Positions 1 to 15,180 of a stretch of DNA of 15,180 bases are shown here, in pieces. The position numbers and the translations under genes were made by a program. The notes beneath the pieces are model-generated. The model worked only from the letters and a program-made list of their open reading frames with translations. It did not search any database and was not told the DNA's origin. The stretch is from the NCBI GenBank assembly GCA_048939465.1, contig JBHLPL010000042.1, positions 1 to 15,180 of the forward strand, given 5' to 3'. This stretch comes from Promethearchaeota archaeon. GTDB taxonomy: Archaea > Asgardarchaeota > Odinarchaeia > Odinarchaeales > JBHLKK01. Positions within the stretch are counted from its first letter, which is position 1. Each line of letters starts with the position of its first letter.

Positions 1-36
1 GTCCCCAAGAAATACATTACTGTCTGCAGAAATACA
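1..36 (-). mobile_element. N-terminal splicing block of an intein inserted in MCM (CDC21-b type site), truncated by the window edge
   Basis: After ...GKGTTAAGL the frame reads CISADSNVFLGD instead of the conserved TAAV.RD. C-x-x-x-D-[ST]-x-V matches intein block A, and the AAGL|T junction is an established MCM intein site. Only 12 residues are visible. Confidence 0.85.
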
Positions 37-1155
37 TAGACCCGCCGCCGTTGTACCCTTCCCAGAGGTAAAAAGTCCTCTCGGCGCAAGACGTGCTACA
101 TACATAAGTAACTGGCTCTTTGCTGTCCCAGGATCACCCACGAGAAGGACGTTTGGCTCTCCTCTTATCTTCATACCATCGGGAAGAACCTTTGGAACCC
201 CTCCAAATAGTTGCAGTGCAATAGCTTCCTTTATTGGTTCATTGCCAAAAACCGAAGGTGCAATGGATGCCACAACCTTCTGATGAATCCACTCATCCTT
301 AGACAAATCTATGATTACCTTTTCTTCATCCGGAGTGATTTCAACTTTTTCTAGTTCTTTTTCCGATACGTCCACATAGTTTGTGTCCAAGAATACATCA
401 AAGGTTTCGAATTCTCTGCTTCTTTGTTTTGAAGGGTTCGATCTTAAGAGTCCTATTATGGCTATGCGATCCCCCGGTCTGGCAACATCCACAAGATCCC
501 TTCTTAGGATAGCATCCAGGGTTCGTGGTAGCTGTCCTGGCGGCAGCTCCTCTGGCCTCTCCTGAATCCGAATCTTTTGCCAGTCTATGAATTTCGACAT
601 CTCTTCCATAAGGCTGAACGGTCCTTTGCGTCCACAATTGGGACTATCACATACCGGTGGCGGTCTGATGGGCCCCCCTTCCTGAGCCCTTAATGTTATT
701 CTTCCACACCTTTGACACTGAAACGCAGCTTCGATGATTTGTGGTTTGACTTCGCTAGCTCTGGTGAGGATGCCGTCTACCATGATGAACTTTCCTATAT
801 GCTCGGCTCTTAATCTTCTTAATGAAATGTGATTTGTGGTAGGCAGGTTCTTAAATCTGCCAGAGAACCTATCCCCCTTCTTCTCGACACGCTCAACGTA
901 CTCCTTTTCATCTATCTCTATTACGTTTTTCACAGCTTTGGAGGATGCTTCAATGTGCTTTTCTGGTTTTTCGAGCATACTCTTACCGAGTTCTGGGTCA
1001 AATTTGAGCAAATCATCAAAATCAATGACAAGAGAAATATCACCCATAACTGGCATCTGACCTATCTTTTCGCGGTATATGGCTCTGCCTTTCTCATCCT
1101 TATAGGTCTTATAGAAATTCTCAAATCTTTCTACGGGATCAACTTTAAGCTCCAT
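1..1155 (-). CDS. mcm: MCM replicative helicase, N-terminal 385 codons (3' part lies beyond the window start; absent from the ORF track)
   Basis: Manual translation from ATG at 1155 (in-frame GTG alternative at 1164; GGTG/GGAG SD-like sequence upstream) gives MELKVDPVERFENFY...FQCQRCG...VCDSPNCG (C4 zinc finger)...QKIRIQERPEELPPGQLPR (ACL loop)...IAPSVFG...GMKIRGEPNVLLVGDPGTAKSQLL (Walker A)...GLFTSGKGTTAAGL. The frame is open down to base 1. Confidence 0.97.
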   Translation of the reverse strand, partial: MELKVDPVERFENFYKTYKDEKGRAIYREKIGQMPVMGDISLVIDFDDLLKFDPELGKSMLEKPEKHIEASSKAVKNVIEIDEKEYVERVEKKGDRFSGRFKNLPTTNHISLRRLRAEHIGKFIMVDGILTRASEVKPQIIEAAFQCQRCGRITLRAQEGGPIRPPPVCDSPNCGRKGPFSLMEEMSKFIDWQKIRIQERPEELPPGQLPRTLDAILRRDLVDVARPGDRIAIIGLLRSNPSKQRSREFETFDVFLDTNYVDVSEKELEKVEITPDEEKVIIDLSKDEWIHQKVVASIAPSVFGNEPIKEAIALQLFGGVPKVLPDGMKIRGEPNVLLVGDPGTAKSQLLMYVARLAPRGLFTSGKGTTAAGLCISADSNVFLGD

Positions 1156-1166
1156 ATTCTCCACAC

Positions 1167-1700
1167 CTAAAGAATCATTGAACTCCAATCTCTTATTAGC
1201 TTAGCTAACCTTTCGTAAAGCCATAATTCCTCGCTGGTCATTGTTCCGGTAAGGCTTGGATGAATATCTTTCAACGCCATTTTTACCATTTTTGAAAGAC
1301 GAGCGGAAATTAGATCGCGCACAGGCACTTCTATCTGTTCTAGCTTTTGTGATGTGATTGGGGTAGGTTCCTTCTGATTTCTTTCCTTTAGGCTTCTCAA
1401 CTTCTTTCTTATCTCAAAATAGAAGTCCTCATCCAATTCTCCAAGCTTAACATCAGAGGTCTCTTTCCACAGGATGTTGTGTAGTTTAGAAACGTCTATT
1501 TCTTTCTCATCCAGATACTCTGCGATACCATTTTCTACCAGTATGTCGGCTTGCCATCTTGGGATTTCCATTCTGTCTCCTTCTCTAAGCGGCCCAAGTG
1601 CTTGACCTGCAACATTAATCTTATGATGCTCCTTCTTGATTATGATTCTTTCTGGCCTATTCTCGTGTTCGAAACCAAACCTCTCTGGGTTGAACTCCAA
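1167..1700 (-). CDS. gins23: GINS complex subunit, Gins23 (Psf2/Psf3-like, B-domain first)
   Basis: 177 aa with N-terminal B-domain motifs (GPLREGDRMEIPRWQADILVENG) followed by a helical A-domain (KLGELDEDFY). It lies directly upstream of mcm, the conserved gins23-mcm arrangement. TTG start with GGAGGG SD at 1708-1713. Confidence 0.88.
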   Translation of the reverse strand: MEFNPERFGFEHENRPERIIIKKEHHKINVAGQALGPLREGDRMEIPRWQADILVENGIAEYLDEKEIDVSKLHNILWKETSDVKLGELDEDFYFEIRKKLRSLKERNQKEPTPITSQKLEQIEVPVRDLISARLSKMVKMALKDIHPSLTGTMTSEELWLYERLAKLIRDWSSMIL

Positions 1701-1736
1701 TGATCTTCCCTCCAGAATATTAGTGAAAAATAAACA

Positions 1737-1744
1737 TTATAAAA
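1737..1744 (-). promoter_or_regulatory. Candidate TATA box for gins23-mcm
   Basis: Minus-strand TTTTATAA about 37 nt upstream of the gins23 start. Assigned by position only. Confidence 0.4.
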
Positions 1745-1760
1745 CCTAACCCTTCATAGT

Positions 1761-1779
1761 CAGATTAAATATAAATCTG
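1761..1779 (+). promoter_or_regulatory. TATA-like element of the thrC-like/wHTH gene embedded in a CAGATT-N7-AATCTG inverted repeat
   Basis: CAGATT (1761-1766) AAATATA AATCTG (1774-1779). The AT core lies about 35 nt upstream of ATG 1809. Confidence 0.5.
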
Positions 1780-1808
1780 CCCCCTAAAACATCTCGCAGG
1801 AATGAGCT

Positions 1809-3224
1809 ATGAATGAAAGCTATCTAGAATGCCCTCAATGTAAAACCAGCTATGGGGCCTTCCCCCCCAGGTCCAAGTGCTCAGATTGCGGGTCAGCCTT
1901 GGAGTATCAATATGACTACGAAGCACTTAGGCCTGTCGTATCTTTGAAGGGAAGCATAAGCTTCTGGCGTTATGCTTCATTATTGCCCGAAGTAAAAGCC
2001 AAGTACAGGATCTCGTTAGGAGAAGGTGGGACGCCCGTAATAGCAGCAAAACGACTTGCAAAAGAATTAGGTCTTGTGCGATTGGCACTTAAAGATGAGA
2101 CAAGAAATCCCACGAATTCCTTTAGGGACAGAGCAGCAACACTTATGATCTCCAATGCATTTGAATATGGTCACAAACACGTAATCTGTGCCTCTAATGG
2201 AAACCTGGGTGCATCTGTTGCCGCTTATGCCGCCAAAGCAGGTCTCAAATGTAGCGTCATCGTACCTCGGAAGGTCCACGTTGGAAAGCTTGCGCAAATG
2301 TATGCCTATAATGCACTAGTTACTACAAAAGGCGACATTGTGGATGACTCTATAGAACTGGCAGAAAAACTGGCAAGAGAAGAGGATTTGTACCAAGCTA
2401 CGGATGGTCTAAATCCCTTAACTATCGAATCCCAGAAGACAATAGCATTTGAGATCTCGGAGCAAATCGATATTCCTGACTGGATAATTGCTCCTATGGG
2501 AAGCGGGGGTACGGTATATTCCATTTGGAAAGGCTTTAGGGAACTTGAACTGTTGGCTCTTTCTGAGAAGCTGCCAAGAGTAGTTGGAGTTCAGGCTGAG
2601 GGGTGTGCACCCATAGTGAGGGCTTTTGAGAGGAACGGTAGGATCGAGAGTCTCTCCAAAGTGGGAACAGATGCTCTTGCCATTCTTGTAAAACAACCGT
2701 TGAGCGGTGAACGGGCACTAGAGGCAGTCAGGGAATCTGGTGGTCTTGCCACCTCGGTATCCGATGAAGAGATACGAAAAGCCGAACGTCTTATTGCTCA
2801 ATCGGAGGGACTTTTCTCTGAACTAGCTAGTGCTGCGACAATATCTTGTGTTCAGAAGTTGGTGGCAGATGGAACAATCGATTCTCAAGATCGGGTTGCT
2901 TGCTTAATCACTGCTAGTGGTCTAAAGGCCCCCTATGTCCTTGAAGCTCTGATTAGGCATCCAAAAGCTATTGGGATGAGGGGGAAAGTAAGCGTAAAGC
3001 TTAGAGTCCTTCGTCTTCTTGAATTGGGCAAGTCCTACGGCTACCTAATTTGGAACAGCCTAGGCCGCTCTGTAAGCCTTCAGGCAGTCTATCAGCATTT
3101 GACTGAGCTGGAGGAGAAGGATTTGGTATCTTCTAAGGAGGAAGGTAAACGAAAATATTACAGAATCACTAATCGCGGGAAGCGAGTTTTGAACGCTTTA
3201 GAGGAACTTGCTATGCTTTTCTGA
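1809..3224 (+). CDS. Threonine-synthase-like (PLP fold type II) protein with N-terminal Zn ribbon and C-terminal PadR/ArsR-like winged helix; predicted pseudoenzyme and transcription regulator
   Basis: CPQC-x12-CSDC ribbon; SLGEGGTP; LKDETRNPTNSFRDR (canonical SFKDR); ASNGNLGAS; PMGSGGT; ITASGLK. Residues ~395-471 (LRVLRLLELGKSYGYLIW...QAVYQHLTELEEKDLV...RKYYRITNRGKRVL) form a typical wHTH. The symbol thrC is withheld because the catalytic Lys is absent. Confidence 0.88.
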   Translation: MNESYLECPQCKTSYGAFPPRSKCSDCGSALEYQYDYEALRPVVSLKGSISFWRYASLLPEVKAKYRISLGEGGTPVIAAKRLAKELGLVRLALKDETRNPTNSFRDRAATLMISNAFEYGHKHVICASNGNLGASVAAYAAKAGLKCSVIVPRKVHVGKLAQMYAYNALVTTKGDIVDDSIELAEKLAREEDLYQATDGLNPLTIESQKTIAFEISEQIDIPDWIIAPMGSGGTVYSIWKGFRELELLALSEKLPRVVGVQAEGCAPIVRAFERNGRIESLSKVGTDALAILVKQPLSGERALEAVRESGGLATSVSDEEIRKAERLIAQSEGLFSELASAATISCVQKLVADGTIDSQDRVACLITASGLKAPYVLEALIRHPKAIGMRGKVSVKLRVLRLLELGKSYGYLIWNSLGRSVSLQAVYQHLTELEEKDLVSSKEEGKRKYYRITNRGKRVLNALEELAMLF

Positions 3225-3255
3225 TATGGTGATCTTCTGCTTCTAGCACAAGTGT

Positions 3256-3298
3256 TATATACAAGTTATAATTTTATTAAAGTTTGAACTTGTATATA
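3256..3298. promoter_or_regulatory. Perfect 12-bp inverted repeat enclosing a TATA-like box upstream of the ECF S-component gene
   Basis: TATATACAAGTT (3256-3267) and AACTTGTATATA (3287-3298) are exact reverse complements. The 19-nt spacer contains TTTATTAA (3273-3280). SD GGTGA at 3301-3305 and ATG at 3311. Confidence 0.7.
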
Positions 3299-3310
3299 CT
3301 GGTGAAGTAT

Positions 3311-3877
3311 ATGGGAATAATTGACATCATCCGTGAAAAAACCCCGCGATATCCTGCCAGCTTAAATATAGCCCTTATTGCCGTTTTCACACCCCTTACG
3401 ACCGCCTTAACGATGTTTATTCAAGTTCCTGTTCCTGCCACTGAAGGGTACATCAACATAGGTGAGGTCGGCGTCTTTCTATCTGGTCTGCTCTTGGGTC
3501 CAGTGGGAGGTGCGATAGCAGGAGGTGTTGGTTCTGCGCTCGCAGATTGGGTCACAGGTTGGGTCATTTACGTACCTTGGACCTTCGTGATTAAGGGTAT
3601 GGAGGGATTAATAGTTGGACTCTTTAGCAGAAGAAGGACAGCTTTCAATGCAGTTGTAGTCATTGCAGCTGGCCTTTGGATGGTTGCAGGCTACTTCCTG
3701 GTTGAAGGGTTTTTACTATGGGGGGTCGCAGCCGCAGCGATAGAGATTCCTGGAAACCTAGTACAGGTCGGTGTTGGAGCAACTATTGCTTTGCTTGTTG
3801 CTACCCTAGTTAGGCCGGCAATGCCATTTCCCAAGGAAGGTCCTCAAGAAAAGGAAGAGCCTACGACGAAGAGCTAG
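3311..3877 (+). CDS. ECF transporter S-component, resembling the HmpT/PdxU2 (COG4720-like) family
   Basis: About 6 hydrophobic helices; motifs QVPVPATEGYINIGEVGVF, GGVGSALAD, FVIKGMEG, MVAGYF, IPGNLVQ. The start is moved from 3284 to ATG 3311 because of the GGTGA SD. Substrate is not established. Confidence 0.85.
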   Translation: MGIIDIIREKTPRYPASLNIALIAVFTPLTTALTMFIQVPVPATEGYINIGEVGVFLSGLLLGPVGGAIAGGVGSALADWVTGWVIYVPWTFVIKGMEGLIVGLFSRRRTAFNAVVVIAAGLWMVAGYFLVEGFLLWGVAAAAIEIPGNLVQVGVGATIALLVATLVRPAMPFPKEGPQEKEEPTTKS

Positions 3878-3973
3878 CAGTTGCCCGACATTCTCAAATC
3901 TCCTATCTTATTTTGGAACCTTGATTGTAAAATTGACGTCAAAATAAAATAAGAAGATTCCACTTCTGAAAAA

Positions 3974-3996
3974 TTTAAATATATAACTGCGTTATA
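3974..3996 (+). promoter_or_regulatory. TATA box followed by a TATAAC-N3-GTTATA inverted repeat upstream of the metalloprotease gene
   Basis: TTTAAATATATA from 3974; TATAAC 3982-3987 and GTTATA 3991-3996; GGAG SD-like sequence at 4003-4006. Confidence 0.45.
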
Positions 3997-4018
3997 ATAT
4001 TTGGAGATTGGTATTCAT

Positions 4019-4519
4019 ATGGACTTTCAAGAATTAAGAAGACAACTGCCGGATATCTTTGAACGGGTAAAGAGGGATGTTGAAGACGAGACCGGACACC
4101 ATCGAGCTGGTCTTGCTCTTGGCCTCGTAGAAATGGGTATGTTTCGAGGTGGATTCATCGGCGGAATGTTCTTCTCCGGTGGAACAATGATCTTGATGAA
4201 TAGAACACCTCTGCGGATAATCATGGCAGAGCAACCTGATGAAGTCGTCTGGGCCTACAATTATCACATTCTGTTGCATGAGTACCTACATTCACTGGGC
4301 TTTATGGATGAACGTCAGGTCAGAGCACTCACGATCGGAATCAGTCGAAGTGTTTTTGAAGATCCTGGGCATCCTTCAGTAGTCCTTGCTGAGAGGGGCA
4401 TAGGCGCCTTTTTCACGAACTTACCGTTGATCTACGCTCCCCCTGGATTTAGTCCCAAAGGACTGCACATCGATGTCGTGAAGGATTTTGATAAAGGGAG
4501 TCAGACCTACTTCAGTTGA
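4019..4519 (+). CDS. Small soluble zincin-like metalloprotease (hypothetical)
   Basis: HEYLHSLGFMD (His codons 4277 and 4289) fits HExxHxxGxx[H/D]. No obvious signal peptide or TM helix. ATG 4019 is preferred over TTG 4001 because GGAG lies upstream of it. Confidence 0.7.
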   Translation: MDFQELRRQLPDIFERVKRDVEDETGHHRAGLALGLVEMGMFRGGFIGGMFFSGGTMILMNRTPLRIIMAEQPDEVVWAYNYHILLHEYLHSLGFMDERQVRALTIGISRSVFEDPGHPSVVLAERGIGAFFTNLPLIYAPPGFSPKGLHIDVVKDFDKGSQTYFS

Positions 4520-4598
4520 GCTGCAGTCCATTACTGAGACTCATTACTCCCAGAATTATGGCCGTGAACCGTCTCTGCATATGCAAGGTAGTCTGTTC

Positions 4599-5372
4599 TC
4601 AATTAGCCTCTGCCAGTTCGAAATCCATGACGCGAGATTCCTCTTTTATCCACCGTCCTCGTCCTGTCGTTCTAAAAAGCAGTGTGAAGATTATCCCACC
4701 CATGAATCCGCCTATGTTGGCCGTGTTTCCAAATACATAGAACGTACCGAAATTTATCACAAGAAGCGTAAACGCCAACTCGAATAATATAATGACTACC
4801 ACAAAGAACCAAGCAGAGATCCTAGCTGTCCTTATCACAGTACGATAATACATGGTGCCATAATACTCCCTGGCCAGATAATATATCTTAAGCTTTCTTT
4901 TTGGAAAGAAAAAGGCATAGGCTGCCATGATTCCGAATACGGCTCCCGATGATCCCCAAGCTGGGAGGTCCATTGCGGGGGTAAGAAAGGTCACAACTAG
5001 GGCTGAGTGAAATAGACCTCCTATGACTCCACAGAACAGGTAGAATAAGAGGAACAGGACGTTTCCAAAGACATTTTCAGCATCATCTCCAAAAAGGCCG
5101 AGCAGGAACATATAAACTCCAATATGAATCAGACTGAGTGGCCACCCGTCATATAGGCCCACGTGCAAGAATATTGATGTTATTAGTGCGTGAAGATTCT
5201 GCCCATTCATGAGCTGAGACGGTATTAATCCGAAGTCATTCTTGAGAAACGCGTATATCTCTGGACTTATGTTTTCAACAAAATACATTGCCAGGGTAAT
5301 AATTATTATCGCATAGGTGAAGAATGGCTTCGTTACCTTACGAAGTTGCTTTTCTTCGGTCGGTAATGCCAA
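4599..5372 (-). CDS. Rhomboid-family membrane protein, predicted catalytically inactive (pseudoprotease)
   Basis: Rhomboid TM pattern, SIFLH, FGDDAE..FG, FYLFCG, GSSGAVFG (Ser kept), but ANIGG in place of AHxGG and HIGVY in place of HxxxN. TTG start with a GGAG/GAGGGGAG SD. An in-frame TGA just upstream fixes the earliest possible start. Confidence 0.88.
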   Translation of the reverse strand: MALPTEEKQLRKVTKPFFTYAIIIITLAMYFVENISPEIYAFLKNDFGLIPSQLMNGQNLHALITSIFLHVGLYDGWPLSLIHIGVYMFLLGLFGDDAENVFGNVLFLLFYLFCGVIGGLFHSALVVTFLTPAMDLPAWGSSGAVFGIMAAYAFFFPKRKLKIYYLAREYYGTMYYRTVIRTARISAWFFVVVIILFELAFTLLVINFGTFYVFGNTANIGGFMGGIIFTLLFRTTGRGRWIKEESRVMDFELAEAN

Positions 5373-5387
5373 CTCCCCTCATCTCCA

Positions 5388-5425
5388 ATCGTTAAATTCC
5401 CACTGATCGTCAAATTCCCACTGAT
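5388..5425. repeat. 18-bp tandem direct repeat (about 2.1 copies)
   Basis: ATCGTTAAATTCCCACTG ATCGTCAAATTCCCACTG AT, with one mismatch between units. Confidence 0.9.
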
Positions 5426-5588
5426 ATTAGCCACACTTATCATATTTTACTATCGACTAGACTATCCATCTCTGTAATTCTGGTGATTGTTTGAGGGTCC
5501 TCCATCCCCCACTCCGAGCCCCTCGTCCGGCTGCTTTCAAAAATGAGGCAAGAATGTCATTTCTTCTTCCCACTTGCCAGAGGCAGCA

Positions 5589-6317
5589 TCAGTATTCTTC
5601 TACACGGAAATAATACTCATCTGGAAGCTCCTTCTTTTCCTTCCAAGGTCCTCTCCCGGTCAGCTTGAAAATAAGGGTAAACGCTGCTCCTGCAATGAAT
5701 CCCCCTACGTGAGCTGTGTTTGCTATTGAAACGGAGAGACCAAGAGTTATTGAAAATATGGAATACATGACTTCGATTGCTACCAAGAAGGCCACCGCAG
5801 CGAGTGCAGGTAGTTGCACAGGGTAATAATACATGAACATCATGAGTCTCCTTTTCGGAAATGCGAGCGCGTAGGCTGCCATAACTCCGAATATGGCACC
5901 GGAGGCTCCTATAGTCGGGATATTTGCCATACCAGGCAGGAATAATACAGTTATCGCCGAATGAAACAGACCGGCTATGATCCCGCAGAATAGGTAGAAG
6001 GTGAGAAACAGGGGCGATCCAAAGATCCCTTCGGCATCATCCCCAAAGATGAATAGAATGTACATATTCATGAAGATATGAAGCAGCCCGTAGTAGCCCT
6101 CGTAAATACCAGCATGAAGAAACATGGATGAGAGCAGTGTAATTAGGTTTTGCCCACTCATTATCTCCGCAGGTCTAAGGCCGTAGTTATTCACCGCGAA
6201 AAGATAGGTACCAAGATCTAGGTTTTCAAAAATGTACACTATTATGTTAATCAAGATAATTGAGTACGTAACAATAGGTCTTATTTTCTTACGTCCAGGC
6301 TCCGCTTCAAATATCAC
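5589..6317 (-). CDS. Rhomboid intramembrane serine protease, catalytically intact
   Basis: SMFLH, HIFMN oxyanion motif, GASG (Ser codon 5901-5903), AHVGG (His codon 5709-5711). GTG start. Confidence 0.93.
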   Translation of the reverse strand: MIFEAEPGRKKIRPIVTYSIILINIIVYIFENLDLGTYLFAVNNYGLRPAEIMSGQNLITLLSSMFLHAGIYEGYYGLLHIFMNMYILFIFGDDAEGIFGSPLFLTFYLFCGIIAGLFHSAITVLFLPGMANIPTIGASGAIFGVMAAYALAFPKRRLMMFMYYYPVQLPALAAVAFLVAIEVMYSIFSITLGLSVSIANTAHVGGFIAGAAFTLIFKLTGRGPWKEKKELPDEYYFRVEEY

Positions 6318-6340
6318 CTTTCATACACCTGCGGGAATCA

Positions 6341-6389
6341 CTTTCCAAATGTTTGGAAGGTTATTATTTCTGCCCTATTTAAACTTTTT
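6341..6389 (-). promoter_or_regulatory. BRE/TATA promoter of the rhomboid pair with a palindrome at the predicted start site
   Basis: Minus strand AAAAAG (6384-6389) followed by TTTAAATA (6376-6383). The near-perfect palindrome CTTTCCAAATGTTTGGAAGG lies at 6341-6360. Confidence 0.6.
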
Positions 6390-6408
6390 AAGCCATTGAA
6401 TTTGTACT

Positions 6409-8232
6409 TCAGAGCACGGTTACGGATTTAGCAAGATTCCTGGGTTGATCGGGGTCATGCCCTCTCAGCACTGCCGCATAATAAGCAAGCAGCTGCAGAG
6501 GAACAACATAAGGTATCGGGGCTAATGTTTCTGGAACTGCCTTTGGTATATTAAATACCGTGTCTGCTATACCTGCCACTTCTTTGTCACCATGCTCAGC
6601 TACAGCTATTATTCTTGCTCCTCTTGCTTTCATTTCCATGATATTCCCGATAATCTTATGATGGGTTTTATCCGGAGGAGTTACGAAGACGACAGGAAAC
6701 CCTGTCTCCACAAGAGCTATTGGACCATGTTTGGATTCTCCGGCTGGATAACCCTCTGCATGAATGTAAGAGATTTCTTTGAGTTTTAAAGCCCCCTCCA
6801 TGGCTGTGGCCATGTTGATTCCTCTTCCAAGGAAGAGGAAGTCAGGACTCTTTGCATATTCCTTTGCAGCCGTTTTGACCGCATTCTCTTCTCTTTTTAT
6901 CACCCTTTGGACGATTTCTGGTAAGCCTTCCAGGCCTCTCATCGACTCTTTAAACTCTGAATCGACTAAAGTCCCCGCGTAATTGGCAAGGTGTAGGCTG
7001 ATGAGTCCCAAGCTGGCCAGTTGAACTAAAAAAGTCTTTGTGGCAGCAACACCTATTTCTGGACCCGCGTGAGTGTAAAACACCTTATCTGCCCTTCTGG
7101 TAATTGAGCTCCCGATGGTATTTGTTACGCAAATTACCTTTGCCCCCGTCTCTCTGGCATGTCTTAGTGCCACAAGAGTATCTGTGGTCTCTCCAGATTG
7201 GCTGACGGCTAACACGACTGAGTTCTCGTTAATTGCTTTCCCAACAGCGTCTGAAAATTCTGAAGATATTACTGCTTGAGCAGGAGTATTTGTCAACTCG
7301 GCAAACATGTATTTGCCAGCTATCCCTGCATGATTTGCTGTCCCTGCGGCGGTAATATAGATATCATTCGCATCGTGTAACATCTTAACGACTTCATTCA
7401 AAGTTTCTCTCTTCGCTCTCAGCGTATCCCTCAGTGCTCTAGGCTGTTCATGAATCTCTTTGAGCATAAAATGCGGAAATCCGCCCTTTTGGGCCATTTC
7501 TACCGTCCATGATACAGCCGAGGGATTTCTTGCAATCGGTTTTTCATCTAAAATGGATTCGATTCTGTAACTGTTAAGCGTAAGTGTAACAACCTCCCCA
7601 TCATGAACGAATACGGCTTTGTTCGTCATCGGCAGAAATGCAGGAATATCAGATGCACAAAACGCCGCTCCATCTTTAACTCCCAGAACCAAAGGACTTT
7701 CGTTTTTAGCGCAAATCAATTTATCGCTTTCGCCAACGTACAGAGTAACTATTGAATAGAAGCCTTCTAATTTCAGCAAAGCCTCCTTGACCGCTGTCTT
7801 TAAATTACATCCCTTTTCAATCGCTTCTTCAATTAGATGGGGGATTACTTCAGTATCTGTTTCAGATCTAAAGCGGTGCCCTCTTTCCTCAAGTTCTCTT
7901 CTCAATTCTGCAAAGTTCTCAATGATTCCATTGTGCACAACTGCGATTTCTTCCGTGCAGTCCACTTGGGGATGCGCATTTTCCCTTGAAGGAGCACCAT
8001 GTGTTGCCCATCTAGTATGTCCAATTCCTATGTTACCTTGCAAACCGTCAAGTTTGAGTCTTGCACTGACTTCATCAATCTTTCCCTTATCCTTTTTGAT
8101 TAAGAGTCTGCCGTTGTGAACAGTGACTAATCCGACGGAGTCGTAGCCGCGGTATTCCAGTCTTTTTAGAGACTCTCTCAGTAGTGCGGCTACTTCCCCT
8201 TCTTCCAGTAGGATTCCAATTATCCCACACAT
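6409..8232 (-). CDS. glmS: Glutamine--fructose-6-phosphate aminotransferase (isomerizing)
   Basis: MCGIIG (Ntn Cys), GHTRWATHG, NAHP, VVHNGIIEN, SETDTEVI, SQSGET, EGALKLKEISYIHAEG, PRNLAKSVTV; 607 aa. Confidence 0.98.
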   Translation of the reverse strand: MCGIIGILLEEGEVAALLRESLKRLEYRGYDSVGLVTVHNGRLLIKKDKGKIDEVSARLKLDGLQGNIGIGHTRWATHGAPSRENAHPQVDCTEEIAVVHNGIIENFAELRRELEERGHRFRSETDTEVIPHLIEEAIEKGCNLKTAVKEALLKLEGFYSIVTLYVGESDKLICAKNESPLVLGVKDGAAFCASDIPAFLPMTNKAVFVHDGEVVTLTLNSYRIESILDEKPIARNPSAVSWTVEMAQKGGFPHFMLKEIHEQPRALRDTLRAKRETLNEVVKMLHDANDIYITAAGTANHAGIAGKYMFAELTNTPAQAVISSEFSDAVGKAINENSVVLAVSQSGETTDTLVALRHARETGAKVICVTNTIGSSITRRADKVFYTHAGPEIGVAATKTFLVQLASLGLISLHLANYAGTLVDSEFKESMRGLEGLPEIVQRVIKREENAVKTAAKEYAKSPDFLFLGRGINMATAMEGALKLKEISYIHAEGYPAGESKHGPIALVETGFPVVFVTPPDKTHHKIIGNIMEMKARGARIIAVAEHGDKEVAGIADTVFNIPKAVPETLAPIPYVVPLQLLAYYAAVLRGHDPDQPRNLAKSVTVL

Positions 8233-8390
8233 GGTTGATGTGGTCTCCAGACATTTGCTTCAGTCTTGTTGATCCTAAATAAGCAACTTAAATAAACCTT
8301 ATTAAGATCCTTTGCTTGAGATTTCTGATATCTTATTAACATCGCCCAACAGTTATTAATTTGTTGGACGCTTCTTAAAATACGTAAAAT

Positions 8391-8405
8391 CACAAAATTT
8401 ATAAA
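8391..8405 (+). promoter_or_regulatory. Candidate BRE/TATA for tuf
   Basis: CACAAAA followed by TTTATAAA (8398-8405), about 83 nt upstream of the tuf ATG; SD GGAGGG at 8473-8478. TTTATAAA is self-complementary, so its direction is inferred. Confidence 0.45.
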
Positions 8406-8487
8406 GTTGGTTTATGCCACTATCTTAGCCAAACAAGTCAAGAACCTCAATAATGAATAAAAAAGAGCTATTGGAGGGAAAAAACTT

Positions 8488-9786
8488 ATGTCTGATAAGA
8501 AGCCCCACCTAAACCTAGTCGTCATCGGCCACGTAGACCATGGCAAAAGTACCCTAATGGGGCACGTGCTTTTCAAAACCGGTGCAGTAACCGATGCTGA
8601 GATGCGCAAGTTAGAATCCCTTGCTACCGAATACGATAAATCAAGCTTCAAGTTCGCATTCGTACTTGACCGTTTAAAGGAAGAACGCGAAAGGGGTCTG
8701 ACTATTGATCTGTTCTACAAGAAATTCGAAACCGAAAAATACTACTTCACGATCATTGATGCTCCTGGGCACAGAGACTTCATCAAGAACATGATTACAG
8801 GTACAAGCCAGGCAGACGGCGCTCTTCTTGTGGTGTCAGCAAAGAAAGGTGAATTCGAAGCAGGAATAGGTCCCGGCGGACAGACTCGTGAGCATGCTTA
8901 TCTAGCTCGTACGCTAGGAGTCGATCAGCTGGTTGTAGCCATAAACAAGATGGATGACCCGTCAGTGAAGTGGGATCAAAAACGATTTGAGCAGGTCAAG
9001 GAAGGCGTTCTAGACATGCTTAAACCCATCTACCAGAAGAAGGTCGAAGATATAAACTTCGTTCCGGTATCTGCATGGACTGGCGATAACTTCACAGAAC
9101 TCAGTGACAAGATGCCCTGGTATAAAGGCCCAACATTAATCGGAGCTCTTGATCTACTGCATGTTCCCGAAAAACCGGTCAAACTGCCTCTCCGTATTCC
9201 AGTTGAAGCTGTATTTACAATAACTGGAGTTGGAACAGTCCCATGCGGTCGAGTCGAAACTGGTGTACTCAAAGTCGGAGACAATCTCATATTTGAACCA
9301 ACAGGAAAATCTGGTGAAGTTAAGACTATCGAGATGCATCACGAATCTCTTCCTTCAGCAGGACCTGGTGACAACATTGGCTTTAACATGCGTGGTCTGA
9401 GCAGAGCCGATATTCGAAGAGGGGATGTGGCTGGTCATTCGACAAAGCCTCCAACAGTCGTAAAGGATTTCACTGGTCGTATCCTTGTTCTGAGTCATCC
9501 AACTGCTATTGCGAAGGGATATACTCCAGTAATTCATGCCCATACTGCCCAGATAGCATGCAAGTTCGAGGAAATAATAAGCAAATTTGATCCGAAAACG
9601 GGAGCAAAAGTCCAGGACAAACCCGACTTCATCAAGACTGGCGATGGAGCTCTAGTCAAAATGGTACCCACAAGACCGATGGTACTTGAGAAGACAAAAG
9701 AAATTCCTCCGCTTGGTCGATTCGCAATCAGAGATATGGGACGGACTGTTGCGGTAGGTGTGGTCGAAGATTTGACGCCCCGTTAA
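8488..9786 (+). CDS. tuf: Translation elongation factor aEF-1alpha
   Basis: GHVDHGKST, ERERGLTID, DAPGHRDF, NKMD, GEFEAG insert, GTVP.GRVETG, PGDNIGFN, LGRFAIRDMG; 432 aa; followed by rps10. Confidence 0.99.
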   Translation: MSDKKPHLNLVVIGHVDHGKSTLMGHVLFKTGAVTDAEMRKLESLATEYDKSSFKFAFVLDRLKEERERGLTIDLFYKKFETEKYYFTIIDAPGHRDFIKNMITGTSQADGALLVVSAKKGEFEAGIGPGGQTREHAYLARTLGVDQLVVAINKMDDPSVKWDQKRFEQVKEGVLDMLKPIYQKKVEDINFVPVSAWTGDNFTELSDKMPWYKGPTLIGALDLLHVPEKPVKLPLRIPVEAVFTITGVGTVPCGRVETGVLKVGDNLIFEPTGKSGEVKTIEMHHESLPSAGPGDNIGFNMRGLSRADIRRGDVAGHSTKPPTVVKDFTGRILVLSHPTAIAKGYTPVIHAHTAQIACKFEEIISKFDPKTGAKVQDKPDFIKTGDGALVKMVPTRPMVLEKTKEIPPLGRFAIRDMGRTVAVGVVEDLTPR

Positions 9787-9800
9787 TAAACTAAACCGTA

Positions 9801-9819
9801 TTTCTTCCTTTGTTTTTTT
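9801..9819 (+). terminator. Possible oligo-T archaeal terminator between tuf and rps10
   Basis: TTTCTTCCTTTGTTTTTTTG about 15 nt after the tuf stop. Archaeal intrinsic terminators are typically oligo-T. Confidence 0.4.
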
Positions 9820-9859
9820 GAAGCAAAGATTCTAAAGCGTATATAATGAGGAAACAGGG

Positions 9860-10168
9860 ATGCCCCAAAAAGCTAGAATCAGAATTTCAAGCACTGATCG
9901 AAAGATGTTAGATGGCGTATGTGGGCAGATTAGTTCAATCACCAAAAGGACAGGTGTGCGCATATCCGGCCCGGTTCCGCTGCCTACGAAGAAACTCAGA
10001 GTTCCTCTACGTAAGACTCCATGTGGCGAAGGAACAGCTACGTGGGAGAAATGGGAATTGCGTATCCATAAAAGACTCATCGATATTGATGCTGATGAGC
10101 GAACCATGCGTCAAATAATGCGCATACGCATTCCGCCGAAGGTTTTTATTGAAGTCGAGCTCCTATGA
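9860..10168 (+). CDS. rps10: 30S ribosomal protein uS10
   Basis: [40 protein letters not shown]; 102 aa; canonical position after tuf. Confidence 0.99.
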
Positions 10169-10319
10169 GCAGACTCTTATTCATAAAAGAACGCCTCTCT
10201 GTTTCTTGCCCCGAATACATAGGTTAATCTATAATCTTAATAACCATCTGTAGGTAAGATATTACTCCAAAACGTTTCACTGCTCATTGATATTGCAGAT
10301 TGAAGGAGGGATAATAAAC

Positions 10320-12191
10320 ATGGGCATTCCCGTTTTCGCAAAGGATTCTCCAGGCGAGCAAGTTCTTCTGTGGGGGAATGAGGCCATAGCCAGAGGTGCT
10401 ATCGAAGCTGGCGTGAATGTTGCGGCATCTTATCCGGGTACCCCCGCTTCCGAAATTCTGACAAGTCTAGCGAGGGTGGCCAAAGATTTTGACATGTATG
10501 CTGAGTGGTCTACAAATGAGAAAGTTGCCATGGAGGTTGCCATTGGAGCTGCCATTACCGGTTTGAGATCGATGGTTTCTATGAAACATGTCGGGCTCAA
10601 CTGGGCTGCAGATCCGCTTATGTCCCTAAATCAATCTGGCGTCCGCGGTGGCATGGTTATCGTCACAGCTGACGATCCAAGCGCACACAGCTCTCAGAAT
10701 GAACAGGACAACCGATTTTATGCCATGTTTTCTGAGTTGCCAATGTTGGAGCCGGCAGATCCCCAAGAAGCAAAAAACATGACTGCCGAGGCCTTCGACC
10801 TATCGGAAGAGTTAGAACTTCCTGTTATGATTCGGTCAGTAACTAGGTTAAGTCACTCAAGGGGCAACGTTACGTTGGGTCAAATAAGACCAACAAAGCA
10901 GAAGGCCGAATTCGTACGGGATCCCCATAGATGGGTTATGGTCCCCTCTTGGGCTCATCATAGACACAAGTGGCTCCACGAAAAGCAGAAACTAATTCAA
11001 GAGCTAACGCTGGCTCTACCTTACAATGAGCTAAGAATAAGAGGAAAGGAGTTAGGTATCGTTGGATGCGGTTCCGCCTCTAATTATGCGCTAGATGCCT
11101 TGAAGATTCTTGAACTTAACGATAAGGTTTCATACCTCAAAATCGGCGTTGCCAATCCGGCTCCTACTCCTCTAGTAAAGACTTTGCTACAGAGCGTAGA
11201 GAGAGTCCTAGTCTTGGAGGAAGTCGAGCCTTTTGTGGAGAGGAGGCTTAAAGAAATAGCCTATGACTTAAAAGCTAGTGTAGACATAAGGGGTAGACTG
11301 ACCGGTGACTTACCTAGGGAGTGGGAGTTAAACGCTGAGCTGACCGTTTCTGCCATTTCTAAGCTACTGGAACTCGAACAGAATGAAAGCTTCGAGTTGT
11401 CGAAGAGAAGTAGTGATTTGATACCTCCAAGAAGCATTGTAATGTGCCCTGGCTGTCCTCATAGAGCAACCTTTTTTGCAATTCGCCGAGCAATCCGAAA
11501 ACCGATTATTACGGGCGACATAGGATGCTACACTCTTAGTGCGTTTCCGCCGTTGGAGATGCAGGACACCTGCTTCTGCATGGGCGGAAGCATAGGCATT
11601 GGGATCGGTGTGTCCAAAGCGGGGGTTGAAAATCCCGTAATCGCAACCTTGGGAGACTCTACTTTCTTCCACGCAGGAATGCCTGCATTGGTCAATGCAG
11701 TATTTAATAAAGCGAATCTAACGATCATCGTTTTTGATAACCAGACTGTAGCTATGACCGGCTTTCAGCAGAGTCCAAGCGCTGGAAAAACAGCAATGGG
11801 CGAAACCACACACATAATAAGAATCGAGGAGATTGCCAGGGCATCTGGCATAGATTTTGTCGAAGTCATTGATCCTTTTGACATCGAGAAAAGCATCGAA
11901 GTAATTAAGAAAGCGGTAGAACACAATGGTCCCGCTGTTGTGGTTTCTAGAAGACTCTGTGCGTTGCTACAGACCAAAATCGATGAAAGAGAAGGAAAAC
12001 CCAAGGTTCTCTATGCGGTTGATTCCGAAAAATGCACGGGTTGCAAAATCTGTCTACGTGACTTCGGCTGCCCTGCAATAGTGTGGGATGAAGGAATCGA
12101 GAAGACGAATGTTGAGCCGACGCTTTGCGTTGGATGCGGTGTTTGTGCTGAAATCTGTCCGTATCAGGCTTACTCCGAAGTGGAGGATTAG
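10320..12191 (+). CDS. iorA: Indolepyruvate:ferredoxin oxidoreductase alpha subunit
   Basis: GNEAIARGA, YPGTPASE, EWSTNEKVA, MKHVGLN, DDPSAHSSQNEQD, MCPGCPHR, GDIGCY, GDSTFFHAG...N (ThDP motif), and a C-terminal 2x[4Fe-4S] domain (CTGCKIC...CP, CVGCGVCAEICP). Start moved to ATG 10320 because of SD AGGAGGG at 10304-10310. Confidence 0.96.
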   Translation: MGIPVFAKDSPGEQVLLWGNEAIARGAIEAGVNVAASYPGTPASEILTSLARVAKDFDMYAEWSTNEKVAMEVAIGAAITGLRSMVSMKHVGLNWAADPLMSLNQSGVRGGMVIVTADDPSAHSSQNEQDNRFYAMFSELPMLEPADPQEAKNMTAEAFDLSEELELPVMIRSVTRLSHSRGNVTLGQIRPTKQKAEFVRDPHRWVMVPSWAHHRHKWLHEKQKLIQELTLALPYNELRIRGKELGIVGCGSASNYALDALKILELNDKVSYLKIGVANPAPTPLVKTLLQSVERVLVLEEVEPFVERRLKEIAYDLKASVDIRGRLTGDLPREWELNAELTVSAISKLLELEQNESFELSKRSSDLIPPRSIVMCPGCPHRATFFAIRRAIRKPIITGDIGCYTLSAFPPLEMQDTCFCMGGSIGIGIGVSKAGVENPVIATLGDSTFFHAGMPALVNAVFNKANLTIIVFDNQTVAMTGFQQSPSAGKTAMGETTHIIRIEEIARASGIDFVEVIDPFDIEKSIEVIKKAVEHNGPAVVVSRRLCALLQTKIDEREGKPKVLYAVDSEKCTGCKICLRDFGCPAIVWDEGIEKTNVEPTLCVGCGVCAEICPYQAYSEVED

Positions 12192-12197
12192 TACACG

Positions 12198-12842
12198 ATG
12201 TCCCCCGTCAAAAGGCTTGAGGAATTCAATCTGTTAATTGCAGGTGTCGGCGGTCAGGGCATAGTTCTGGCCGCCACAATCTTAGCAAATGCCGCTGTAA
12301 AGAATGGAATAAAGGTGAGGGCGGCTGATACGTTCGGCGCAGCTCAAAGAGGTGGTCCTGTTCTGAGTCACATAAGAATGGGCAGTGAGGTCTACGGACC
12401 TTTAGTTCCTAAAGGACGGTGTGATGTTCTTTTGGGATTTGAGCCTATTGAGGCTCTGAGAGTAGGGGAGGAATATCTATCCTCCAGAAGTTATGTACTG
12501 ATGAACACTAAACCCATCTTCTCAGTTGATGTAACAACAGGAAAAGCGTCCTATCCCCCAATAAGAAAAATCATCGATTCGTTAAGAGATATAACCAAAG
12601 ATGTGGTAACAATAGAAGCGACCAGTCTTGCAGTAAGAACCGGGAACGTTGTAAGTACTAATGTTGTCATGCTTGGAGGATTGTCGGCAAGCGGTAGGAT
12701 TCCTCTGGCGATTGAGGATATTAAAGACTCAATTAAAGAGATCATTCCTAAAGGCAAGCAGAAAATGAACTTGAACGCGTTTGATTTCGGAGTTAAGGCA
12801 ATAAAGGAGAAGTTAGAAGAATCCAAATCAAGAAGACAGTGA
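12198..12842 (+). CDS. iorB: Indolepyruvate:ferredoxin oxidoreductase beta subunit
   Basis: IAGVGGQGIVLA, GAAQRGGPVLSHIRMG, DVLLGFEPIEALR, NVVMLG, NLNAFDFG; 6 nt downstream of iorA. Confidence 0.96.
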   Translation: MSPVKRLEEFNLLIAGVGGQGIVLAATILANAAVKNGIKVRAADTFGAAQRGGPVLSHIRMGSEVYGPLVPKGRCDVLLGFEPIEALRVGEEYLSSRSYVLMNTKPIFSVDVTTGKASYPPIRKIIDSLRDITKDVVTIEATSLAVRTGNVVSTNVVMLGGLSASGRIPLAIEDIKDSIKEIIPKGKQKMNLNAFDFGVKAIKEKLEESKSRRQ

Positions 12843-14209
12843 GAAGATGCTTCTCATCGCTCCACATATGGACAGGAGGGACAAAAACGAAGAAACGAAA
12901 CGATCGGTATTGGGATAAAGAGGTAGAGACGCTTCCTTTGCCAAGATTAAGAGATCTGCAACTCAAGAGATTGAAAAGTATAGTAAAATACGCATACGAA
13001 AATGTTTCCTTGTACAAGAGGAAGTTTGATGAAGCAGATGTAAAACCAGATGAAATCGAGAAGCTTGAGGACATCACAAGACTTCCATTTACTAGAAAGG
13101 AGGAACTGAGAGACAGTTACCCCTTTGGAATGGTCGCAGTACCTTTTGATAAAATAGTCAGGATTCACGCAACTTCGGGTACAACTGGAAAACCGACCGT
13201 CGCATGTTATACCAAAGACGATATTGAGACTTGGACCGACTTAATGGCAAGGTGCATGTATACCGCGGGAGTAAGGCAAGATGATATCGTTCAGAATGCC
13301 TATGGGTACGGGCTATTCACGGGAGCTTTAGGGTTTCACTACGGTGGAGAGAGGATAGGATCGACTATTATACCCACTGGCAGTGGAAACACGCAAAGAC
13401 AATTGATGATAATAAAAGACTTTGGGACGACCGTTCTATGTTCCACCCCATCTTTTGCTGCATACTTGGCAGAAGTTGCGAGAGAGCAGGGTATGATCAT
13501 GAGTGAAGATGCGAGAATAAGACTTGGATTGTTTGGAGCTGAAGCATGGTCTGATGAATTAAGGAAAAGAATAGAACAGGAATACAATATGGCTGCTATT
13601 GACTTCTACGGACTTGCAGAGATAATTGGTCCCGGAGTCTCGGTTGAATGTTACGAAAGAAATGGATTACACCTGTGGTCTGATCATTTCTACGCTGAGA
13701 TAGTCGATCCCGCGACAGGCATTGTGTTGAATCCTGGTGAAAGGGGCGAACTGGTCATAACAACCTTAACAAAAGAGGGCATACCGGTAATAAGGTACAG
13801 AACGAAAGATCTGACAATTATTGATGAAGAAGAATGTAGCTGCGGTAGGACTCATCCGCGTATTGCACGAATACTTGGAAGATCGGATGATATGATAGTC
13901 ATACGAGGGGTAAATGTGTTTCCAAGCCAAATCGAGCACGCATTAATCGGTATAAAGGGTGTTACCTTAAATTATCAGATAGTCCCAAAGAGAGCGGTCA
14001 GATTGGATGTTGAGATATTAGATCATCTTCTTGTGAGAGTTGAGCCTGAAGAAGAAATATGGGAGAATAAGAGGCTGGGGGATGAGCTTAAGAGAGAGAT
14101 CACTGAGGAATTGAAAAGCGCCCTTGGTCTGAGAACGGAAGTTGAGCTAGCTGCTCCTGGTAGTCTTCCCAGATCAACTGGAAAGGCGAAAAGAATCGTT
14201 GAGGAGTAG
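12839..14209 (+). CDS. paaK: Phenylacetate--CoA ligase-like (aryl-acetate CoA ligase, ANL superfamily); start position uncertain
   Basis: RIHATSGTTGKP, AYGYGLFTGALG, GLFGAEAWS, YGLAEIIGPG, LVITTLTKEGIPVIRYRT.D, GRSDDMIVIRGVNVFPSQIE, GKAKRI. The GTG start overlaps the iorB stop (GTGA). Confidence 0.93.
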   Translation: MRRCFSSLHIWTGGTKTKKRNDRYWDKEVETLPLPRLRDLQLKRLKSIVKYAYENVSLYKRKFDEADVKPDEIEKLEDITRLPFTRKEELRDSYPFGMVAVPFDKIVRIHATSGTTGKPTVACYTKDDIETWTDLMARCMYTAGVRQDDIVQNAYGYGLFTGALGFHYGGERIGSTIIPTGSGNTQRQLMIIKDFGTTVLCSTPSFAAYLAEVAREQGMIMSEDARIRLGLFGAEAWSDELRKRIEQEYNMAAIDFYGLAEIIGPGVSVECYERNGLHLWSDHFYAEIVDPATGIVLNPGERGELVITTLTKEGIPVIRYRTKDLTIIDEEECSCGRTHPRIARILGRSDDMIVIRGVNVFPSQIEHALIGIKGVTLNYQIVPKRAVRLDVEILDHLLVRVEPEEEIWENKRLGDELKREITEELKSALGLRTEVELAAPGSLPRSTGKAKRIVEE

Positions 14210-14215
14210 GATTAT

Positions 14216-15180
14216 TTGAACACAGTAGAAGCCTTTACCGACGCCCCTCGTTTCAAGTGGTTAGTTCTGGCTCTGACTAGTGCTTCTGCCCTCCTGGCAT
14301 ACATTCACGTTTTTATGTATCCGCCACTGATTCCGAGTTTCATCTCTGAGCTTGATATAACTTACGCTGAAGCGTCATTATTAATCGTGTCTTTTGGTTT
14401 TGCATATGCTTCCAGCGGAGTTGTTTGGGGACACATCATCAATCGCTACGGTGCTAGGTGGATTCTTTTGATCGGGCTATTTTGCATTTCAATTCCTCAA
14501 TTTATCATCGGCTTATTGCCCCCTTTTTACATAATGATAGCACTCAGATTTATCCTTGGCCTCGGAGTGTCCAATATCCGTGTAACGGGGATAAGTTATC
14601 TGCATTCATGGTTCTTTTCTTCGGAGGTAAGCAAGGCAATAGGCATTTTCAACGCATCCGTTCTCGTAGGAATGTCAATTGCTCTTGCGACACCTCCTAT
14701 TCTCCAGATCTATTTTGGGTGGCTATTCCCTTTCATGTTTTTTTCGCTGATTACCTTCTTCTTCATAATGGTCTTTGCTGCTTTAACGCAGAAAACACCT
14801 GGCTCAATGCAGCTAATGTTTGAGAAGAACTCAGAGAAGGAGTCGGAGGGGTCTCCCGGGTCTAACGAGTCTGTATATCGAAACCCCTCCGTCATAATAC
14901 TGGGATTTATGGCATTCTCTCTATACTTCGCCGTCTACGCCGCCCTATCGTGGATACCATCTTACGTTTATGAGGTGGGTAATCTGTCTGAACTCGAAAG
15001 GGGTATCGTACTTCCCTTTTTGACTCTTGTAGGGATACCCGCTTCTTTGACAGGTGGATTCATTGGCGACAGAACTGGAAAGAGAGTCCTGGTTACGGCT
15101 GTGGGGTTGGGGATTAATGTTAGTATATTGATTCTTGCTGGCCCCCCGATAACAAACCTCGCCTACCTGCTGGGCACGCT
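14216..15180 (+). CDS. MFS transporter, truncated at the window end (absent from the ORF track)
   Basis: Manual translation from TTG 14216 (SD GAGGAG at 14201-14206) gives MNTVEAFTDAPRFKWLVLALT...WGHIINRYGARW (motif A)...LRFILGLG...GGFIGDRTGKR (second motif A). The frame is open for 321 codons with repeated TM helices. Confidence 0.92.
   Translation, partial: MNTVEAFTDAPRFKWLVLALTSASALLAYIHVFMYPPLIPSFISELDITYAEASLLIVSFGFAYASSGVVWGHIINRYGARWILLIGLFCISIPQFIIGLLPPFYIMIALRFILGLGVSNIRVTGISYLHSWFFSSEVSKAIGIFNASVLVGMSIALATPPILQIYFGWLFPFMFFSLITFFFIMVFAALTQKTPGSMQLMFEKNSEKESEGSPGSNESVYRNPSVIILGFMAFSLYFAVYAALSWIPSYVYEVGNLSELERGIVLPFLTLVGIPASLTGGFIGDRTGKRVLVTAVGLGINVSILILAGPPITNLAYLLGT

Follow-up and report, generated by a model that had tools for sequence, protein, structure and literature searches.

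A predicted rhomboid pseudoprotease beside its presumably active paralogue in a tandem array of an Odinarchaeia-type Asgard archaeon

Introduction

Can a rhomboid gene that has lost its catalytic histidine persist beside an intact copy, and if so, as what? The question is raised by a 15,180 nt stretch of DNA from a Promethearchaeota archaeon (assembly GCA_048939465.1, contig JBHLPL010000042.1, positions 1 to 15,180 of the forward strand), the whole of which is referred to here as the window. Two rhomboid genes lie next to each other in it: gene A, which has the full catalytic set, and gene C, in which the His of the sixth transmembrane segment (TM6) has been replaced. In rhomboid proteases the TM6 His is the general base of a Ser-His dyad. 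On balance, C is probably a dead rhomboid pseudoprotease, as predicted from its residues, descended from a tandem duplicate of A that arose within a single lineage of Odinarchaeia-type Asgard archaea.

Two families of inactive rhomboid relatives, the iRhoms and the Derlins, are central to eukaryotic signalling and endoplasmic reticulum (ER)-associated degradation, and their rise from proteases is an open question. In the literature searched, rhomboid pseudoproteases figure as a eukaryotic theme, at whose origin YqgP hints; none was found described there from an archaeon, Asgard or other, and a paper on Streptomyces rhomboids is silent on inactive copies. A review (PMC12615303), which cites Kinch and Grishin (2013), mentions inactive relatives of rhomboids in prokaryotes and across the domains of life at the level of the superfamily. 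Work on YqgP has proposed that an adaptor role preceded the loss of catalysis (PMC7231995).

Two tandem rhomboid genes, one without the TM6 histidine

Genes and key codons of the pair, with the evidence for each gene in brackets:
4599–5372, minus strand: rhomboid C, the His-less paralogue and predicted pseudoprotease, 257 amino acids (aa), TTG start (motifs, PF01694, AlphaFold2 (AF2) model, dN/dS)
4716–4718, minus strand: Asn219 of C (AAC), in place of the TM6 general-base His
4947–4949, minus strand: Ser142 of C (GSSG), nucleophile position kept
5112–5114, minus strand: Tyr87 of C, in place of the TM2 oxyanion-hole Asn; the TM2 His is kept (HIGVY)
5589–6317, minus strand: rhomboid A, a canonical, presumably active intramembrane serine protease, 242 aa, GTG start (motifs, PF01694, AF2 model, dN/dS)
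5709–5711, minus strand: catalytic His203 of A
5901–5903, minus strand: catalytic Ser139 of A
6066–6068, minus strand: catalytic Asn84 of A

The first-pass annotation, made from the letters of the window, had read this region as a rhomboid protease followed by a rhomboid pseudoprotease. Two full-length open reading frames lie on the minus strand exactly where it had placed them, the motifs it had reported are present in both copies, and the codons for the retained Ser, the substituted Asn (AAC) and the substituted Tyr fall at the positions it had given. Gene A encodes FLH, HIFMN, GASG and AHVGG, the full rhomboid catalytic set (H, H, N, S, H); gene C encodes FLH, HIGVY, GSSG and ANIGG. The two products are indeed paralogues, although the earlier figure of roughly half identical was slightly generous (44 % identity over 245 columns, E 2e-70, by BLASTP). 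As had also been noted, C is full length and a purine-rich, Shine–Dalgarno-like stretch (GGAGATGAGGGGAG) lies immediately 5′ of its TTG start.

Both products match the Pfam Rhomboid family PF01694 (A 88.3 and C 56.8 bits, cut-off 22.6 bits), as do two further His-less paralogues from related genomes described below, B (57.8 bits) and D (45.5 bits). A falls short of the cut-offs of the NCBIfam models for GlpG (TIGR04239; 24.6 bits, cut-off 250) and rhombosortase (TIGR03902; 25.7 bits, cut-off 84), and C matches neither model. A and C are the sole rhomboid matches in the host genome, an assembly of 1.96 Mb that is 91 % complete; the same-order genomes sampled measure 1.3–1.4 Mb. The gene glmS lies upstream of the rhomboid genes, with a convergent gene for a 172-aa protein downstream. 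Judged by motifs and profile match, C is a member of the rhomboid superfamily (PF01694, MEROPS S54) that fails two features of active peptidases, the TM6 His and the TM2 HxxxN.

The A–C sequence is not an assembly quirk, because independent contigs span the junction and a strain variant keeps the three key codons. The locus is present in DNA runs of seven studies of mangrove and other sediments, and contigs from at least three studies among these public runs cross the junction between A and C. The strain variant covers positions 4400–5832 and differs from the window at 11 positions, none of them within the key codons of C.

A three-gene array with one member deleted

The sister species, represented by a second genome of the same genus, carries three tandem rhomboids, A-B-C, between the same flanking genes as in the window. 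The same array is found in three further NCBI metagenome-assembled genomes (MAGs) and in three Logan contigs. The A of the sister species is 91 % identical to that of the window and has all catalytic motifs; its C is 93 % identical, with the same HIGVY, GSSG and ANIGG. The replacement of His by Asn is thus conserved in relatives, in the sister species as well as in the strain variant. The additional gene, B (279 aa in the sister species), keeps GASG, has Ala for the TM6 His (LAIGG) and has L...H for the H...N of TM2 (LFGFH). The motifs of B and C are identical in all carriers of the A-B-C array.

By blastn, 851 bp of the sister-species contig (L021, 1542–2392) have no counterpart in the window. 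The matching blocks on the two sides join window 5551–4400 to L021 1541–410 and window 6500–5588 to L021 3298–2393, so that the missing segment comprises most of the A–B spacer and the whole of B apart from the final ~90 bp. Traces of both remain in the window, within the 216 bp that separate A from C:
5462–5551, minus strand: stump of the deleted B, the last ~90 bp of the coding sequence, with a 1 nt indel, out of frame and without a start (blastn and base-level alignment)
5552–5588, minus strand: remnant of the A–B spacer, from just after the A stop to the deletion breakpoint, aligning with the start of the sister A–B spacer

The two genes of the window are therefore what remains of an A-B-C array after deletion of B, and the earlier description of them as a pair needs revision: the locus is not simply a pair, and the stump of a third member sits in the A–C spacer.

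The spacer that precedes C holds a further element:
5437–5451, minus strand: A/T-rich box AGTAAAATATGATAA, a candidate TATA-type promoter of C, inside an almost invariant stretch of the B–C spacer

The stretch around this box is near-identical between the two species, while third positions of the coding sequences differ. Because the A/T-rich box upstream of C is nearly invariant, it suggests that C has a promoter of its own, with 5437–5451 as the candidate.

Two further lineages carry other versions of the array. In a Logan contig (L028), the gene after A is a full-length B with 81 % identity to the sister-species B; its TM4 and TM6 motifs are unchanged, and its four key positions carry the same substitutions. 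In a contig of JGI 3300009034 (L026), A is directly followed by a fourth rhomboid type, D, with no B:
L026 1397–2260: D, a diverged, C-like rhomboid with an in-frame TAG at 1646–1648

D is 41–43 % identical to C and keeps GASG; it has Asn for the TM6 His (MNTGG) and Y...F in TM2, so that both TM2 residues are lost, as is the His of FLH. The TAG replaces the Gln of a conserved GQNL. D is known from one contig, and its stop marks either a pseudogene or a sequencing error. At the flanking genes the four lineages are about equally distant from each other (dS 0.3–1.0).

Origin and rarity of the histidine loss

A maximum-likelihood tree of 51 rhomboids groups A, B, C and D in a single clade (support 97/87). 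Within it the His-less copies are monophyletic (100/98) with the topology B,(D,C), and are sister to A. The clade as a whole is sister (93/92) to the single-copy rhomboids of a same-order family, one of which bears the name Candidatus Odinarchaeia. Path lengths from the duplication node to B and C are about twice that to A, and the path to D is nearly four times as long; the branch of D (1.19) is the longest in the tree. In the free tree the duplication falls after the split from the same-order family (97/87). A somewhat older duplication, with A grouped with the same-order orthologues, was not rejected by the approximately unbiased (AU) test (p 0.168). Of the two origins that the first-pass annotation had offered, an independently evolved pseudoprotease agrees with the position of B, C and D beside A inside the archaeal rhomboid tree. 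An ancestral-type one does not agree with the confinement of the His-less copies to one genus-level lineage.

A HMMER search of 1.84 billion cluster representatives returned just four proteins below 1e-30, which are the representatives of C, A, B and D; all other proteins are at most 45 % identical. Among 154 aligned proteins (the 150 best hits and earlier ones), 132 have H-N-S-H at the key positions, and the exceptions are mostly fragments. The only other full-length protein with His replaced by Asn (P0066) is a private variant, since the protein it clusters with has His. Among the other archaeal rhomboids tabulated, a single one lacks the complete set of H, H, N, S and H; it comes from the same phylum (L019, G033:C177). 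That protein has Tyr for the TM6 His (FAYIGG) and an internal TAA, and is probably a broken extra copy; its genome measures 4.5 Mb and gave six first-look candidates to the C query.

The other 38 genomes of the phylum that were sampled yielded no counterparts of B, C and D, and no further tandem rhomboids were apparent at any other locus fetched. A scan of metagenomes with A brought up single-copy rhomboids alone, all distant (identity of 43 % or less), and no more arrays, a scan of genome contigs with C returned one distant Bathyarchaeota rhomboid, and a feature search of the ESM Atlas returned generic rhomboid clusters alone. The second same-genus genome besides that of the sister species (G001) has no rhomboid; its completeness is 78 %, and it lacks the flanking 172-aa gene too.

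Selection and loss

The first-pass annotation had taken C for a maintained gene and not one in recent decay, and substitution patterns, estimated by the method of Nei and Gojobori, bear this out. Between the window and the sister species, C has 22 non-synonymous and 33 synonymous differences, which gives a dN/dS of 0.18 and rejects neutral evolution (p 7.6e-9). For B, compared between the sister species and L028, the counts are 65.5 and 85.5 (dN/dS 0.17, p 1.5e-17 against neutrality). The dN/dS of A is 0.07–0.14 across the four lineages, and the ratio of non-synonymous to synonymous differences does not differ significantly between C and A (Fisher p 0.11). From these estimates the extant His-less copies appear to be constrained, though less than A.

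Synonymous divergence between the window and the sister species is uneven along the locus: dS is 0.21 for C, 0.47 for the 172-aa gene, 0.72 for A and 0.96 for the 3′ part of glmS, and at the DNA level the two are 88.9 % identical on the C side of the deletion but 83.6 % on the A side. Either a recombination boundary at the deletion or small-sample noise may lie behind the unevenness.

Several points weigh against C being a maintained pseudoprotease. The low dS of C beside that of its neighbours (0.21 versus 0.47–0.96) may mean that its conservation is in part the product of recent segment exchange. In the strain variant, C has six synonymous and four non-synonymous differences and A has five and none, a pattern of weaker constraint on C. 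B is deleted from the window genome and D is interrupted by a stop in L026, which marks the copies as expendable. The public runs that contain the locus are all DNA runs, with no RNA run listed. Finally, C retains its Ser, so that residual or altered catalysis is conceivable from the sequence.

The losses in particular can be read in another way, unlikely on the whole yet the best placed of the alternatives: the His-less copies could be redundant duplicates that are being lost one by one, C being merely the one not yet hit and having no role of its own. A deleted B with a frameshifted stump, a D with TAG for a conserved Gln on the longest branch, rates in B and C about twice that of A since the duplication, and the restriction of the clade to one narrow lineage would all fit such a course. 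However, neutrality is strongly rejected for both C and B, and both are full length wherever they are present, B being conserved between two lineages at a dS of 0.66. E99, the glycines of GxSG, the GG of TM6 and the spacer box upstream of C are conserved as well. The His-less copies can evidently be lost and are evolutionarily volatile, and C is still best taken as a constrained member of this set.

Catalytic capacity

C is taken to be unable to hydrolyse peptide bonds, because the rhomboid mechanism depends on the Ser-His dyad and because mutagenesis of GlpG has shown that replacing the TM6 His abolishes activity. A protease with altered specificity, in which Ser142 would work with another base or a bound water, is improbable. 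It would account for the retention in C of the Ser, its GxSG context and the TM2 His, and for the presence of the Ser in all three His-less types. The missing residue, however, is the general base of the dyad, without which GlpG mutants are inactive; B has Ala at that position, which offers no acid-base chemistry, C has lost the TM2 Asn too, and a single one of the archaeal relatives checked is without the His.

Structure and comparison with known systems

The AF2 model of C has a predicted local distance difference test (pLDDT) score of 92.5 and a predicted template modelling (pTM) score of 0.88; that of A has a pLDDT of 91.5. C is modelled as a bare six-transmembrane core, with TM1 starting at about residue 17 and a loop 1 of about 45 residues. 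B, C and D alike retain the six-helix fold, the turn with GxSG and the GG packing motif of TM6, and have in common a lengthened hairpin, rich in Arg and Tyr, between TM4 and TM5. The most evident departure from A lies between TM4 and TM5:
4815–4895, minus strand: TM4–TM5 beta-hairpin of C, residues 160–186, rich in Arg, Lys and Tyr, predicted on the cytoplasmic side (DSSP of AF2 models)

According to DSSP the hairpin has 12+12 residues in C versus 6+6 in A, in agreement with the placement of gaps in the A/C alignment, and the corresponding insert of B, rich in Arg and Tyr, is longer still. By the positive-inside rule the hairpin of the C model would face the cytoplasm. A complex prediction for A with C scored 0.01 against a mark of 0.32, which counts neither for nor against binding.

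In a Foldseek comparison of the C model, GlpG occupies ranks 1–4 and most of the top 37 (TM-score 0.6–0.7, normalised to the target). iRhom1 and iRhom2 follow after GlpG, and Derlin-1 and Der1 stand at ranks 38 and 42, with weak fold matches (7y4w_W, E 0.08; 6vjz_C, E 0.28). A profile search of the PDB likewise has GlpG first (2.7e-12), with iRhom1 at 8e-9 and no Derlin at E ≤1. A phmmer search of PDB sequences with C alone gave no match at E ≤1; by sequence, GlpG and iRhom were reached with the profile alone. The GlpG of Escherichia coli and Haemophilus influenzae, the best profile and fold match, has the same six-transmembrane core as C, together with the Ser-His dyad and HxxxN; C has Asn and Tyr at the respective positions and a long TM4–TM5 hairpin.

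Like C, the iRhoms (RHBDF1/2 and Drosophila iRhom) have a rhomboid fold and a partly lost catalytic apparatus and coexist with active rhomboids. They are further marked by a long cytoplasmic N-terminal domain, a large, luminal iRhom homology domain in loop 1, a seventh transmembrane segment and a Pro before the former Ser position. C, in contrast, is a 257-aa six-transmembrane core with GSSG and none of these iRhom-defining features; its origin, judged by the tree, is independent and recent. Drosophila iRhom works against active rhomboids by drawing their clients away (PMC3149277).

Derlins have an inactive rhomboid fold, bind membrane clients, thin the bilayer and pass clients to a cytosolic AAA ATPase (PMC8641752, PMC12615303). 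The working model for C is borrowed from this handling of clients by Derlins, Dfm1 included. In Derlins neither the Ser nor the His remains, and WR and SHP-type motifs are present, whereas C keeps its Ser, and the A/C locus has no linked partner of the Cdc48 or Hrd1 type. A prokaryotic precedent for a rhomboid that works without catalysis, as proposed for C, is provided by YqgP (GluP) of Bacillus subtilis, which still presents MgtE to FtsH when protease-dead, and by YdcA, for which no activity could be detected (PMC7231995). Both of these proteins have the full set of catalytic residues, however, whereas B, C and D have lost theirs genetically and in tandem with an active parent. C is neither an iRhom nor a Derlin; at most it works like them.

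That C is an ancestral Asgard pseudoprotease specifically related to eukaryotic iRhoms or Derlins is scarcely credible, for all that the host is an Asgard archaeon and chains of iRhom1 and iRhom2 are among the profile and fold matches, given that B, C and D branch beside A within Odin-type rhomboids, that GlpG matches better than iRhom and Derlin was not found by sequence profile, that C has no iRhom homology domain, long N-terminal domain or Pro in the GxSG turn, and that counterparts of B, C and D were found in 0/38 of the other genomes of the phylum sampled, with no further relatives below 1e-30 among the cluster representatives.

A possible role for C

Non-catalytic binding of transmembrane clients is the likeliest role for C, and is proposed because iRhoms, Derlins and protease-dead YqgP act in this way. 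One duplicate of A founded the clade of B, C and D, all of them without the TM6 His and with altered oxyanion-hole residues in TM2. C would be made from its own promoter and inserted into the membrane like A, and could still bind transmembrane segments in an open, inert active-site groove. It may then hold or divert clients of A, or pass clients to cytosolic machinery by way of the enlarged hairpin. The first-pass annotation had suggested that C might trap substrates or regulate its partner, both of which would be conjectural roles. The His-less copies would be useful to the cell but dispensable.

A more ambitious and distinctly doubtful version is that A and its His-less paralogues form a working module in the Asgard membrane. 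In such a module the copies would capture clients in the inert groove, and the hairpin would serve either to keep them away from A or to hand them over to an unfoldase-protease of the cytosol such as Cdc48/PAN with the proteasome. If true, the module would be an independently evolved archaeal counterpart of the logic of iRhoms and Derlins, in which the step from protease to pseudoprotease could be studied beside the parent enzyme.

Most likely, then, C is an independently evolved, Ser-retaining, tandem-arrayed and volatile rhomboid pseudoprotease, as predicted, in an Asgard archaeon. Because the duplication is confined to one lineage, the locus is not informative on the origin of iRhoms or Derlins. 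It would instead represent a recent transition from protease to pseudoprotease in a relative of the eukaryotic ancestor, with an active parent beside up to two dead daughters. A fixed loss of His, acting selection and natural knock-outs (B deleted, D with a stop) make for a small, testable system, the importance of which is kept moderate by its narrow distribution and the evident dispensability of the copies.

Other elements of the locus and the host

Three further features accompany the rhomboid genes:
4001–4519, plus strand: 172-aa protein, convergent to C, with HEYLHSLGFMD (HExxHxxGxxD, a metzincin-like zinc-protease signature) and no Pfam or PADLOC family
5388–5423, minus strand: 18-bp tandem duplication CAGTGGGAATTTRACGAT in the C leader, two copies, perfect but for one position; the sister species has a single copy
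6375–6388, minus strand: box AAAAGTTTAAATAG, resembling a transcription factor B recognition element (BRE) and TATA box, ~60 nt before the A start and a candidate promoter of A

The 172-aa protein is conserved at 40–62 % identity in many of the sampled Asgard genomes. A pairing of the rhomboids with this HExxH gene in the manner of iRhom and ADAM17 was considered and rejected, the genes being ~250 kb apart in a closed same-order genome (G003). A link to defence, considered in view of the volatility of the array, was not apparent, with no PADLOC match for A, B, C, D or the 172-aa neighbour.

The interest of the locus had been said to be greatest if the host were an Asgard archaeon, and the names of related proteins agree with such a host: proteins from the same genus carry the name Promethearchaeota, and the closest single-copy relative is labelled Candidatus Odinarchaeia. 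Taxon labels disagree in detail (P0159, P0009), one conspecific MAG being labelled Candidatus Hodarchaeota and others Promethearchaeota, with the nearest relatives in Odinarchaeia. The host is taken as an Odinarchaeia-type Asgard archaeon.

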